Assembly: GCA_038999215.1 (NCBI GenBank) | Contig: JAWABM010000008.1 | Span: 1-28,822, forward strand | DNA: 28,822 nt | Direction: 5' to 3' | From: Candidatus Aenigmatarchaeota archaeon | Lineage (GTDB): Archaea; Aenigmatarchaeota; Aenigmatarchaeia; Aenigmatarchaeales; JACQIB01 | Shown here: piece by piece, positions 12,001 to 15,000 of the stretch | Numbering within the stretch: position 1 is the stretch's first letter | How the letters are laid out: each line of letters starts with the position of its first letter | Program-made: the position numbers

Positions 12001-15000
12001 GCAGGCGCCTGCTTGACGAAGCTTATGTTGAAGCCGAGCTTTCTCAGGTCCGCGCCGACCTTCTTTTCAAGCTCGTCCGAGGGCTTGCTGCGGAGCGCCT
12101 TGCCGGTGATTTCCGGCTCAACGCCCTTCACAAGCTTCTTCTGCAGTATCTCTTCCAGCCTCTGCGCTATCGACAGGAGCATCTTCAGATTGCGCGCCTC
12201 GTGCTCGTAGATTGCTTTCTTGCTCACCCCAACGAGCTCGGCCAGCTCCATCTGCGTCATTCCGCGCCTCTTCCTGGTTTCCCTCATCGCCTCCTTGTCC
12301 ACATGCACGAACAGCCCTCCGCGCTGCCTGTATATCTCCGGGAATATTCCCTCCGATACGAACAGCCTGAATGTTTCGAAGCAGACCGCTGGTATGCCGA
12401 ACCTCTCGTACACCACGCCCTGCTCCAGCTTTTCGCGCGTGGTGTTCTTGCCTATCAGGAAGGCTGATGCGCCGATGCTGCGGCTGAGCGTTGTCAGGTT
12501 GCTCGCCTGCTCCTCTGAGAACGAGTCTATGTTCTGCAGGATCTTGAGGAACAGCAGCTTCTCCCGCTTCGCGGCTAGGTCGAAGCAGCCCCTGTACGCG
12601 CAGTAAGCGTAGCCTTCGTTCTGCAGGAGCTTCTCGATATCTGCAAGCAGGCCTTCCTTTAGCATACTTTTAAATTGCTCGCACTAACAATAAAAAAGCA
12701 TGGGCGGGTAGCTTAGCCTGGTCAGAGCGCCGGTCTTATAAAGCGCGTTTTCAGCGCTTTTGTTGGCAACGCTCGTAAAAACCGGAGGTCAGGAGTCCAA
12801 ATCTCCTCCCGCCCACCACGTTTTTTAATATGCTTCCACAAATCCTATCATGGCGGAATGCAAGAGCTGCGGCATGCCGATGGCCGATGCGAAGCAGCAT
12901 GGCGCTGGAGACGGGAAGAACCCTTACTGCATCTACTGCACCGACAACAAGGGCAAGCTAAAGCCGCGCGCCGAGATAAGGGCGGCGATGGTCACGCTGC
13001 TTCTCAGGAAGAAGAAGATGGACGTCGAGCAGGCCGAACGGGCAATCGATGCCTATATGGCGAAGATGCCGGCGTGGAAGAAAAGAAAATGATTCAGCCG
13101 TGGTACATGGTTTCGACTTCAGTCCTCTTCTTGCTCGTCCAGCCCTCTGAGATGGTCGTGAACGAGTCCACGAGCACGGCCCTGTTTTCCTCCCAGAAAT
13201 CCTTCACATCCGAGACCCAGTCGGCCGCGTCCTTCTCGGAAAAATTGACGGTGATGGCGTTGGCCTTCCAGATGAGGGATTGCATCTTTTTGTACAGCTC
13301 GAAAATATCATCCTTCTGCTTCTGGGAAAGCATCCTCCTTTCGTAATAACAGCAGAAGTTCTCAGCGCCGGAGATTATGGGCTCGATTTTTGCCAGTATG
13401 CTCTCGAATTTCTCGGCTATGCAGTTCTTGACCTGCGAGATGACCGGCCCGTCCTCCTCAATCTTGACGTCGAAATTTTTCCTGAGCCAGTCCCAAGGCG
13501 GCAGGCTTTTGTATTTCCTTTTGAGCTTCTCGTACTCCTTGTTGGCTGCCATGATAAAACTTGTGAGCAAAAGTTAATAAACTTACCTTGCCATGTTTGT
13601 TTGCAAGGGCCGGTGGTCTAGCGGCATGACGTTACCCTGACACGGTAAAGGTCGGGAGTTCAAATCTCCCCTGGCCCACCATATGTGATCTTATGGAAGT
13701 GGAGACCAAGTTCAAGACCGACGATTTGGAAGGCCTGAAGAAAAAACTGGTGAAAATGGGCGCAAAATTCTCTTCGCCGGTGAGCCAGGTCGACGATTAT
13801 TACAGGTTCAAAGGCGGGGAGCTCGACCCTCAGGGCCCAGGATCCGTTCTGATAAGGATAAGAAGGCAGGGAAGCAAGGCATTCCTTACGACGAAGGAGC
13901 TTACCTCAAGGGCCGGCGTCTGGGTGGAGCATGAGTCCGAGATTGCCGACCCCGCCGAAACGGAAGAGATGCTGAAGCAGCTCGGCCTCGCAAAGGTCTT
14001 CTCCATAACGAAGGCCAGGGCGTGCGGAAAACTAGGCGAGTACGGCCTCTGCCTCGACAGGATAAAGGAGCTCGGCGACTACCTCGAAGTGGAGGTGATA
14101 TCCGGCGACGCAGAAGGCGCGAAGAAAAAAATAATGAGTCTCATGGGGAAGCTGGGCATAGCCGAAAAAGACGTGGAGCACAGGGGATATGCGGCGATAA
14201 TTTTCCAGGGCATGGGCGTCAAGTACGAAAGGGGCAGCGGTTGAACATGAAAGCCGTCGCCGATCTCCATATACATTCGCATTATTCCAGGGCTGTCAGC
14301 GAGAACATGAACATCGAAACGCTCGATAAGTACGCGAAGATAAAGGGGCTGGACGTGCTCGGAACAGGCGACTTCACGCATCCGAAATGGTTCGCTGAGA
14401 TGAAAACGCTGCTCAGGGAGCGCGAAGGCACGGGCCTTTACGAGTACAGGAACGGCACGCTCTTTATGCTCACTACCGAAGTGTCGCTCATCTACAACCA
14501 GGACGGAAGGCTGAGGAAGGTGCACAACGTCATTCTTGCGCCGTCCTTCGAGGTCGCCGGCCAGATAAACGAGTGGCTCGCCACAAAGGGCAATTTGGAG
14601 GCCGACGGCCGCCCGATTTTCGGCAAGATCGCCTGCCCGGAGCTTGTTGAGAAGTGTATGAGCATCTCTAAGGACATAATGGTGATTCCTGCGCACGCCT
14701 GGACTCCCTGGTTCTCGCTCTTCGGCTCGAACTCGGGCTTTGACAGGATAAAGGACTGCTTCGGAGACCAGCTAAACCATGTTCATGCCATCGAGACCGG
14801 CCTGTCCAGCGACCCTGCGATGAACTGGAGGCTCAGCCAGCTGGACAACGTCGCGCTGGTCTCGAACAGCGACTGCCATTCCTACTGGCCATGGCGCCTC
14901 GGCCGCGAGGCCAATGTTTTTGAACTGAAGGAGATAACGTATTGGGGAATCATAGATGCGATAAAGGCAAAGGACCCCAGCAAGTTCCTGTACACTATAG

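Follow-up and report, generated by a model that had tools for sequence, protein, structure and literature searches.

An intron-containing tRNA-Ile(UAU) in an aenigmatarchaeon, and UAU in place of TiaS and tRNA-Ile(CAU) as the majority state in the DPANN phyla searched

The genome of a Candidatus Aenigmatarchaeota archaeon (assembly GCA_038999215.1) encodes a genuine intron-containing tRNA for isoleucine whose anticodon is UAU, and in the DPANN phyla that we searched this tRNA replaces TiaS and tRNA-Ile(CAU) as the majority state. The gene lies on contig JAWABM010000008.1, whose 28,822 nucleotides are the window analysed here. The exchange of TiaS for a UAU anticodon is an already known system, which limits the surprise. 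What we add is its breadth, two reciprocal exceptions, a quantified absence of 2'-O-methyl guides from the intron, a 38/39 splice register and a signature at position 31 of the tRNA.

The initial annotation had placed an intron-bearing tRNA-Ile(UAU) in this genome, and both Rfam and the intron mode of ARAGORN confirmed it (Table 1). The Rfam tRNA family matches positions 12702-12815 with 55.5 bits (E = 1.4e-09), and ARAGORN reports Ile(tat) with a 39-nt intron over the full gene, which its default mode misses. Once the intron is removed, a tRNA of 78 nt remains, with the anticodon loop CUUAUAA and an encoded CCA. An Ile-type body is thereby combined with a genomic UAU anticodon, as in the archaeal TiaS-independent Ile3 class. 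The likeness of the body to tRNA-Ile(GAU), also remarked on in that annotation, holds at 67 of 78 identical positions when the intron-less sequence is aligned with the Ile(GAU) of the same genome. The elongator Met tRNA of this genome shares 58 positions with it, and the two DPANN Ile(CAU) genes described below share 58 and 54.

Table 1 Coordinates of the tRNA-Ile(UAU) gene, its parts and its neighbours in the window.
Feature	Positions	Strand	Basis or remark
Pre-tRNA-Ile(UAU) gene with encoded CCA	12702-12818	+	Rfam RF00005, ARAGORN intron mode, sequence
5' exon	12702-12740	+	Ends at A37; would end at 12741 (A38) in the 38/39 register
U31	12734	+	Partner A39 at 12781
Anticodon UAU (U34-A35-U36)	12737-12739	+	Rfam, ARAGORN, spliced sequence
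39-nt intron	within 12741-12780	+	12741-12779 (37/38) or, as the better fit, 12742-12780 (38/39)
Intronic half of the central 4-bp helix for splicing	12775-12778	+	Pairs with U33-U36
3' exon, from A39	12781-12818	+	Short variable loop, T-arm, acceptor strand, CCA
PRK04140 HTH regulator-like gene	11757-12665	-	NF003162, E = 1e-68; divergent from the tRNA
Conserved-neighbourhood gene	9189-10829	-	Homologues beside other UAU genes

The splice motif appears to fit a cut between positions 38 and 39 better than the canonical 37/38, as judged from base pairing: all four central pairs are available in the 38/39 register versus one of four in the canonical one, and the spliced product is identical in both. 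Constrained to the splicing helix, the fold has an energy of -44.2 kcal/mol, versus -46.5 kcal/mol for the minimum free energy structure. The bulge-helix-bulge is present in a relaxed form, and the strict canonical motif was not found at 37/38. The genome encodes two adjacent EndA subunits. Among 45 resolved UAU introns of the phylum, 29 fit 38/39, 14 fit 37/38 and two are ties. Every intron of the 38/39 class starts with A. This class also takes in all five genes in which the other register would put U or C at position 38. Besides using two registers, these introns vary in length from 17 to more than 60 nt and have little sequence in common. An anticodon-loop intron is present in 45 of the 49 UAU genes sampled in the phylum. 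Genes without an intron account for one of these 49, for two of 12 in the Micrarchaeota phylum of G380 and for nine of 13 in the probable Iainarchaeota phylum of G378; the intron is dispensable for the UAU-decoding system.

Neither TiaS nor tRNA-Ile(CAU) was found in this genome (G000; 571 kb, 87.9% complete), in agreement with the annotation. The TiaS domain PF08489 was not detected, and a full-length profile made from 122 TiaS proteins and applied without filtering to all six frames reached 15.9 bits at best, compared with about 490 bits for a true TiaS scored with a leave-out profile. The CAU tRNAs found were the initiator and the elongator Met only, with no Ile-bodied CAU tRNA among them. 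Both Ile(GAU) and an IleRS gene are present. As the genome is incomplete, and Arg(CCG) and Thr(UGU) are also missing from the tRNAs found in it, the absence of TiaS and tRNA-Ile(CAU) rests on the counts over many genomes given below. AUA is the commonest isoleucine codon, at 40.1 per 1000 versus 15.4 for AUC and 6.8 for AUU in 271 long ORFs, in which AUG has a frequency of 25.4 per 1000.

TiaS was found in none of 371 genomes of the phylum, among them the 42 genomes of the order, for which its absence had already been claimed, and 98 genomes that are at least 90% complete. The result was the same for 251 genomes of the phylum of a Woesearchaeota-labelled genome, 151 of the phylum of a Micrarchaeota-labelled genome and 24 of the small phylum of another Micrarchaeota-labelled genome, that is, 0 of 426 genomes in three phyla other than its own, with four archaeal controls positive in each search. 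Elp3 scored above the cut-off in 53 of 121 genomes of the phylum, which indicates that family searches work within it. Two genomes assembled in two contigs (G190) and four contigs (G351) have the UAU tRNA, and TiaS was not found in either.

We searched for the tRNA with an Ile-bodied pattern open to either TAT or CAT, which gave no match in a backwards control. It matched 143 of the 371 genomes of the phylum, and 147 of the 148 matches read TAT and one CAT. For the order, the 14 of 42 genomes originally reported rise to 24 with this looser pattern, all of them TAT. The UAU tRNA was also found in 63 of 101 genomes of the Woesearchaeota-labelled genome's phylum, in 67 of 81 of the Micrarchaeota-labelled genome's phylum (including G682, probably also among the 151 above, whose removal changes nothing), in 14 of 17 of an Undinarchaeota-labelled phylum (15 with a still more permissive pattern), in 28 of 42 of the ex4484_52 phylum and in 70 of 71 of the phylum of an unlabelled archaeon. 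The last is probably Iainarchaeota, as a close relative of its TiaS is labelled Diapherotrites. Among the matches listed, intron-bearing UAU genes carry Woesearchaeota, Pacearchaeota, Nanoarchaeota, Micrarchaeota, Undinarchaeota and ex4484_52 labels. Several of these phylum counts are samples, and the claim is one of not being found among the genomes searched; Altiarchaeota, Nanohaloarchaeota and Huberarchaeota lie, by name, outside the census. The pattern missed 228 of the 371 genomes of the phylum. Among five checked, from families that it had missed, three have a UAU gene hidden by an extra intron in the D-loop and two gave no UAU match.

At 385 of 683 genomes in six DPANN phyla (counted by eye from the matches), UAU decoding is a lineage trait and not a rare species-level gain, as the initial annotation had argued. 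Its description of the trait as order-wide stands for the order itself, with the UAU tRNA in 24 and TiaS in none of its 42 genomes, but proved too narrow, since the trait is phylum-wide and, judged by the tRNA, extends to five further DPANN phyla.

Two genomes show the reciprocal state. G807 and G876 have an Ile-bodied CAU tRNA together with a full-length TiaS (E = 9e-34 and 6e-33), and in neither was a UAU tRNA found, even by the more permissive pattern; TiaS with tRNA-Ile(CAU) and tRNA-Ile(UAU) are mutually exclusive. Detection of these two proteins means that the search can detect a DPANN TiaS. In neither genome do the tRNA gene and tiaS share a contig, and the two contigs concerned have a similar GC content. 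TiaS was not found in three relatives tested beside them. The two proteins are 37% identical to each other and 44-48% identical to their nearest Bathyarchaeia-labelled relatives, and in a quick tree, whose named comparators are almost all Bathyarchaeia, they stand on long branches outside the Bathyarchaeia core. They may represent retention or an old transfer, between which this tree cannot separate. An S4 protein of G807, 46-54% identical to those of five other DPANN genomes, is uninformative on whether the contigs of that genome are native.

Two other matches to an Ile-bodied CAU tRNA were considered as native genes and rejected. The single CAT match of the phylum is in G127, on a 6.6-kb contig with foreign-looking genes, and another, in G438, is at a contig edge. 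Both genomes have their own UAU tRNA and no TiaS was found in them, for which reason we judge these CAU genes to be probable contamination; the contig inspected was that of G127.

The regulator-like gene that diverges from the tRNA recurs next to it: of 30 loci in the phylum, this one included, 23 have a PRK04140 regulator no more than 1.5 kb from the UAU gene, as do two loci of the Undinarchaeota phylum. Elsewhere, thermosome or IleRS genes flank the UAU gene. The other conserved neighbour in the window we take, from its translation, to encode a thermosome subunit. The idea that the UAU gene occupies the usual place of tiaS beside the regulator found no support in a sample of 80 tiaS loci from metagenomes, in none of which the regulator or a thermosome gene was nearby; these loci came from a Bathyarchaeia-rich query, and 59 of the 80 have at least 1 kb of upstream sequence, some being short. 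From two sequencing runs a single DNA contig, of 167 nt, was recovered that covers the gene, and the RNA run gave none. A sigma-70 promoter scan, of a type unsuited to archaea, gave no match. A very loose anticodon pattern, applied to five genomes, was discarded because chance alone gave it matches in the hundreds, a number close to that of its control.

The methylation site of a box C/D guide is set by its distance from the D box. Our strict guide test asked for antisense against the anticodon loop together with a D box (NNGA) at 5 nt from the partner of position 34. The best antisense in the tRNA-Ile(UAU) intron is the 4 bp of the splicing helix itself, and no guide was found in it, whereas every other tRNA of this genome with a split-box U34, namely Leu(UAA), Gln(UUG), Arg(UCU), Lys(UUU) and Glu(UUC), has an intron with 7-9 bp of antisense followed by NNGA at +5. 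The introns of Leu(CAA) and Met(CAU) likewise fall within an overall range of 7-10 bp of antisense, with NNGA at the same five-base distance from the position-34 partner. In those of Ser(UGA) and Lys(CUU) the antisense is 8 bp long, and the strict box test is not passed. In this comparison a few intron ends were mis-parsed, which leaves the antisense count unaffected. These guide elements would be expected to direct 2'-O-methylation. The intron of Arg(UCG), a family-box U34 tRNA, is likewise without a guide, an observation that counts against the explanation favoured below.

The difference extends beyond this genome. No guide was found in 45 UAU introns, 23 from the order and 22 from the rest of the phylum, which as kin are not independent (three more could not be resolved). 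Of 26 Lys(UUU) and Arg(UCU) introns of the order, by contrast, 18 pass the strict test and 25 have antisense of 7 bp or more, in a set drawn from 30 of 55 matches. The contrast first noticed between this intron and those of the other split-box U34 tRNAs is thus borne out.

The tRNA has a further peculiarity at position 31, which is a pyrimidine in 387 of 390 UAU matches and U in 348, as counted by eye with patterns that left this position free. The counts for positions 31 and 38 exclude the named-genome scan, in whose pattern the bases 38 and 39 of genes without an intron were prescribed. At position 31 all four Ile-bodied CAU matches have a purine, and among the 45 tRNAs of G000 only Ile(UAU) and Ser(CGA) have U31. 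One may speculate that a weak 31:39 pair tunes the stringency of decoding; shared ancestry alone could explain the signature.

We consider it rather probable, taking the explanation as a whole, that tRNA-Ile(UAU) is the only reader of AUA in the cell, that its U34 is unmodified and that this arrangement is the usual condition in the DPANN phyla searched, from which rare genomes depart by retaining TiaS and tRNA-Ile(CAU). Cleavage of the pre-tRNA, for which the two-subunit splicing endonuclease is the probable enzyme, would take place at the relaxed bulge-helix-bulge and give the loop CUUAUAA. IleRS would charge the product, and U34 would pair with the A of AUA, which would make TiaS and tRNA-Ile(CAU) dispensable and account for their absence. 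AUG would most likely be avoided through an unmodified U34, as in Mycoplasma mobile and in a tilS suppressor of Bacillus subtilis. According to these studies, the reading of AUA by unmodified U34 is strong and that of AUG weak, and such a U34 generally serves codons ending in A far better than those ending in G (PMC3575796, PMC3919564). The proposal that the guide is missing so that AUG is avoided would fit this published work. That a guide is missing from Ile(UAU) and from no other split-box U34 tRNA, and is present in its competitor Met(CAU), would be consistent with a bare U34, as would the unusual pyrimidine-31:purine-39 pair.

An unmodified U alone may not suffice, since on Escherichia coli ribosomes the tRNA of M. 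mobile does still read AUG (PMC3919564). Moreover, an engineered U34 isoleucine tRNA of Haloferax acquires cnm5U, reads AUG and slows growth (PMC3895270), and because the present genome encodes Elp3, alongside TruD, Cbf5 and a ThiI-like protein, a bare U34 would need an anti-determinant in this archaeon. Elp3 is too patchy across the phylum to be required.

Guide absence might instead be a matter of history, the UAU gene having come from Ile(GAU) or Ile(CAU), in which an intron of that kind had never been present, and ordinary introns having been gained independently. Such an origin, which is compatible with any modification state of U34, seems to us possible but somewhat unlikely. It is in keeping with the closest body being that of an intronless Ile(GAU), with the two intron registers, and with ten other guide-less introns in the genome, nine of them at C34 or G34 tRNAs and the tenth that of Arg(UCG). 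What it leaves unexplained is the occurrence of guides in the five other split-box U34 tRNAs, in Leu(CAA), in Met(CAU) and, less strictly, in Ser(UGA). Their presence in many tRNAs suggests that guides spread readily, yet no UAU intron has one, even if kinship inflates that count.

It is unlikely, in our view, that U34 is modified, be it by an Elp3-dependent cm5U-type group or as a thio-uridine, with errors at AUG limited by an adapted ribosome and Met(CAU) and the residue tolerated. Elp3 and the ThiI-like protein would supply the means, Haloferax does modify its engineered tRNA (PMC3895270), ribosome dependence has been shown for M. mobile (PMC3575796) and the Met(CAU) intron carries a guide to C34. 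However, Elp3 was below the cut-off or not found in 68 of the 121 genomes, including whole families that have the UAU tRNA (0/6 in f36, 0/11 in f38 and 0/5 in f40), and in Haloferax the tRNA so modified misreads AUG and growth is slowed (PMC3895270).

The assertion that AUA is read the eukaryotic way was not upheld. It would have the intron act as the determinant of pseudouridines at positions 34 and 36, restricting reading to AUA, much as yeast Pus1 makes both in an intron-dependent manner (PMC9602550). Most UAU genes sampled in the phylum do have the intron, and TruD and Cbf5, both encoded in this genome, could make pseudouridine. We regard this route as quite improbable in view of the intronless UAU genes of three phyla, common in one of them, and of the diversity of the introns in length, register and sequence. 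TruA, of the Pus1 family (PF01416), was found in none of five genomes tested and TruD in three, the two in which it was not found (G147 and G237) both having an intron-bearing UAU gene. Finally, that TiaS and tRNA-Ile(CAU) are present and were missed through incomplete genomes or divergent proteins is hardly credible: all genomes are metagenome bins, and this one, 88% complete, misses two other tRNAs, but TiaS was likewise not found in genomes of 90% completeness and above, the same search picked up the long-branch proteins of G807 and G876, and 147 of 148 Ile-bodied matches were TAT, with the sole CAT on a foreign-looking contig.

Returning to an unmodified U34 as the preferred explanation, we tentatively extend it to propose that UAU decoding is near-universal and ancient in DPANN, with a bare U34 kept by exclusion from both guides and Elp3 and tuned by the Y31:R39 pair. 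If this were true, the agmatidine system would be lacking in a sizeable part of the diversity of archaea and not just in a few odd cases, TiaS and tRNA-Ile(CAU) would survive only in rare deep pockets, the exchange would provide a gene-content marker for DPANN relationships, and these archaea would offer a natural model of a U34 that avoids AUG. The breadth of the trait bears on when agmatidine arose or was lost, and the missing guide, the patchy Elp3 and the pyrimidine at position 31 give handles on how U34 reads AUA and not AUG in archaea. The position of DPANN and the archaeal root are still debated, in an article whose available text does not mention tRNA (PMC13473441). The main text of a preprint on 208 complete Nanobdellota genomes is without isoleucine, TiaS or anticodons (10.64898/2026.05.13.725050), and no DPANN-wide survey of UAU and TiaS was found in the literature searched; subscription papers, gene-content supplements and tRNA databases may hold one.

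Among known systems, the closest is that of ARMAN-2, -4 and -5, which Fujishima (2011) reported to have the UAU anticodon, no tRNA-Ile(CAU) and no TiaS, likewise in DPANN hosts. The ARMAN-2 gene also has an anticodon-loop intron, its pre-tRNA was spliced in vitro, and the comparison with eukaryotes was already drawn there (PMC3239211). In contrast to the 25-nt ARMAN-2 intron, which has a strict motif at 37/38, the present one is 39 nt long, relaxed and apparently better suited to 38/39, and the epsilon2 endonuclease of ARMAN-2 has its counterpart here in two separate EndA subunits (PMC3239211). Eukaryotic tRNA-Ile(psi-A-psi) similarly has a UAU gene with an anticodon-loop intron; its route needs the intron and Pus1, unlike the DPANN system with its intronless forms and no TruA/Pus1 in the five genomes, and its partner is an inosine tRNA rather than Ile(GAU) (PMC9602550). 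M. mobile and the B. subtilis tilS suppressor read AUA by U34 with neither lysidine nor agmatidine, as we propose here, but these cases are bacterial and intronless, and their modification was measured whereas ours is inferred (PMC3575796, PMC3919564).

In Nanoarchaeum equitans as well as in Korarchaeum cryptofilum, too, Ile3(UAU) replaces Ile2(CAU) and TiaS, and the gene of Korarchaeum contains an intron and is similar to the Ile(GAU) of that organism, as is the case here (PMC8450103, PMC6000648, PMC3919564). The difference is one of scale. In the text available from these sources the tRNA is called uncommon (Chan 2021; PMC8450103), a species-specific gain seen in two of 167 archaea (Wu 2018; PMC6000648), or present in very few (PMC8450103, PMC6000648, PMC3919564), and the ARMAN study covered three genomes as against six phyla here (PMC3239211). 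Where the papers speak of two to five UAU-decoding exceptions, our counts make the UAU tRNA the majority among the DPANN genomes searched and the default in every DPANN phylum reached.

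Two DPANN genomes (G807 and G876) retain both tiaS and tRNA-Ile(CAU) and have no tRNA-Ile(UAU), and a Diapherotrites-labelled protein falls within a small, deep TiaS clade. A gene matching IleRS at 34–38% identity, which would encode IleRS or a related synthetase, often adjoins the UAU gene in two phyla, one Undinarchaeota-labelled and the other probably Iainarchaeota.

The UAU introns of the source order have in common a covarying 5' hairpin, which competes with the splice-competent long helix, the two being separated by approximately 2 kcal/mol in the window gene. A similar alternative double pairing was also seen in other introns of the source genome (G000) that lack an antisense guide to position 34. 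Further insertions are found in many UAU genes of the source phylum, either in the T-arm or in the variable loop; some exceed 60 nt, and one appears to be duplicated (locus L047).

Among the other tRNA genes of G000, the tRNA-Ala(GGC) in the window was not called by ARAGORN in its default mode. The second tRNA-Thr(CGU) is intronless, whereas the other copy, on contig C16, bears an intron. Both this gene and the second tRNA-His(GUG) appear to be of foreign origin; they may indicate DNA that was acquired, or sites of integration. The two tRNA-Asn(GUU) genes are spaced 3.9 kb apart, as expected of a tRNA-integrated element or of an assembly duplication. The window also contains a run of membrane- or lipoprotein-like ORFs, of a type common in DPANN surface clusters.

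Features and loci of G000 and of the genomes compared
Feature	Position or loci	Strand	Remarks
UAU intron with 5' hairpin	window 12741-12779; L001-L017		
Membrane- or lipoprotein-like ORFs	window 15503-21073	-	409, 290, 303, 820 aa
tRNA-Ala(GGC)	window 24739-24856	-	43-nt guide-less intron; detected by Rfam and by ARAGORN in intron mode
Second tRNA-Thr(CGU)	window 27745-27818	-	no encoded CCA
Second tRNA-His(GUG)	C17 5787-5861		
tRNA-Asn(GUU)	C1 6996-7112, 10909-11025		identical, intron-bearing
tiaS	L228 (G807:C44), L229 (G876:C21)		
tRNA-Ile(CAU)	L231, L230 (G807 and G876)		
UAU gene beside IleRS match	L197, L198, L200, L202, L204, L207, L209		
UAU gene with T-arm/variable-loop insertion	L010, L015-L018, L023, L024, L039, L043-L048, L050		

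Among the matches listed from the scan of named genomes (L051-L170), most of the bacterial ones are tRNA-Ile(UAU) genes without an intron, from genomes with a Patescibacteria label (Saccharibacteria, Paceibacteria, Levybacteria and others), and some come from Chloroflexi. A literature search found no paper treating CPR together with lysidine. These matches suggest that small-genome bacteria may have a parallel UAU solution.
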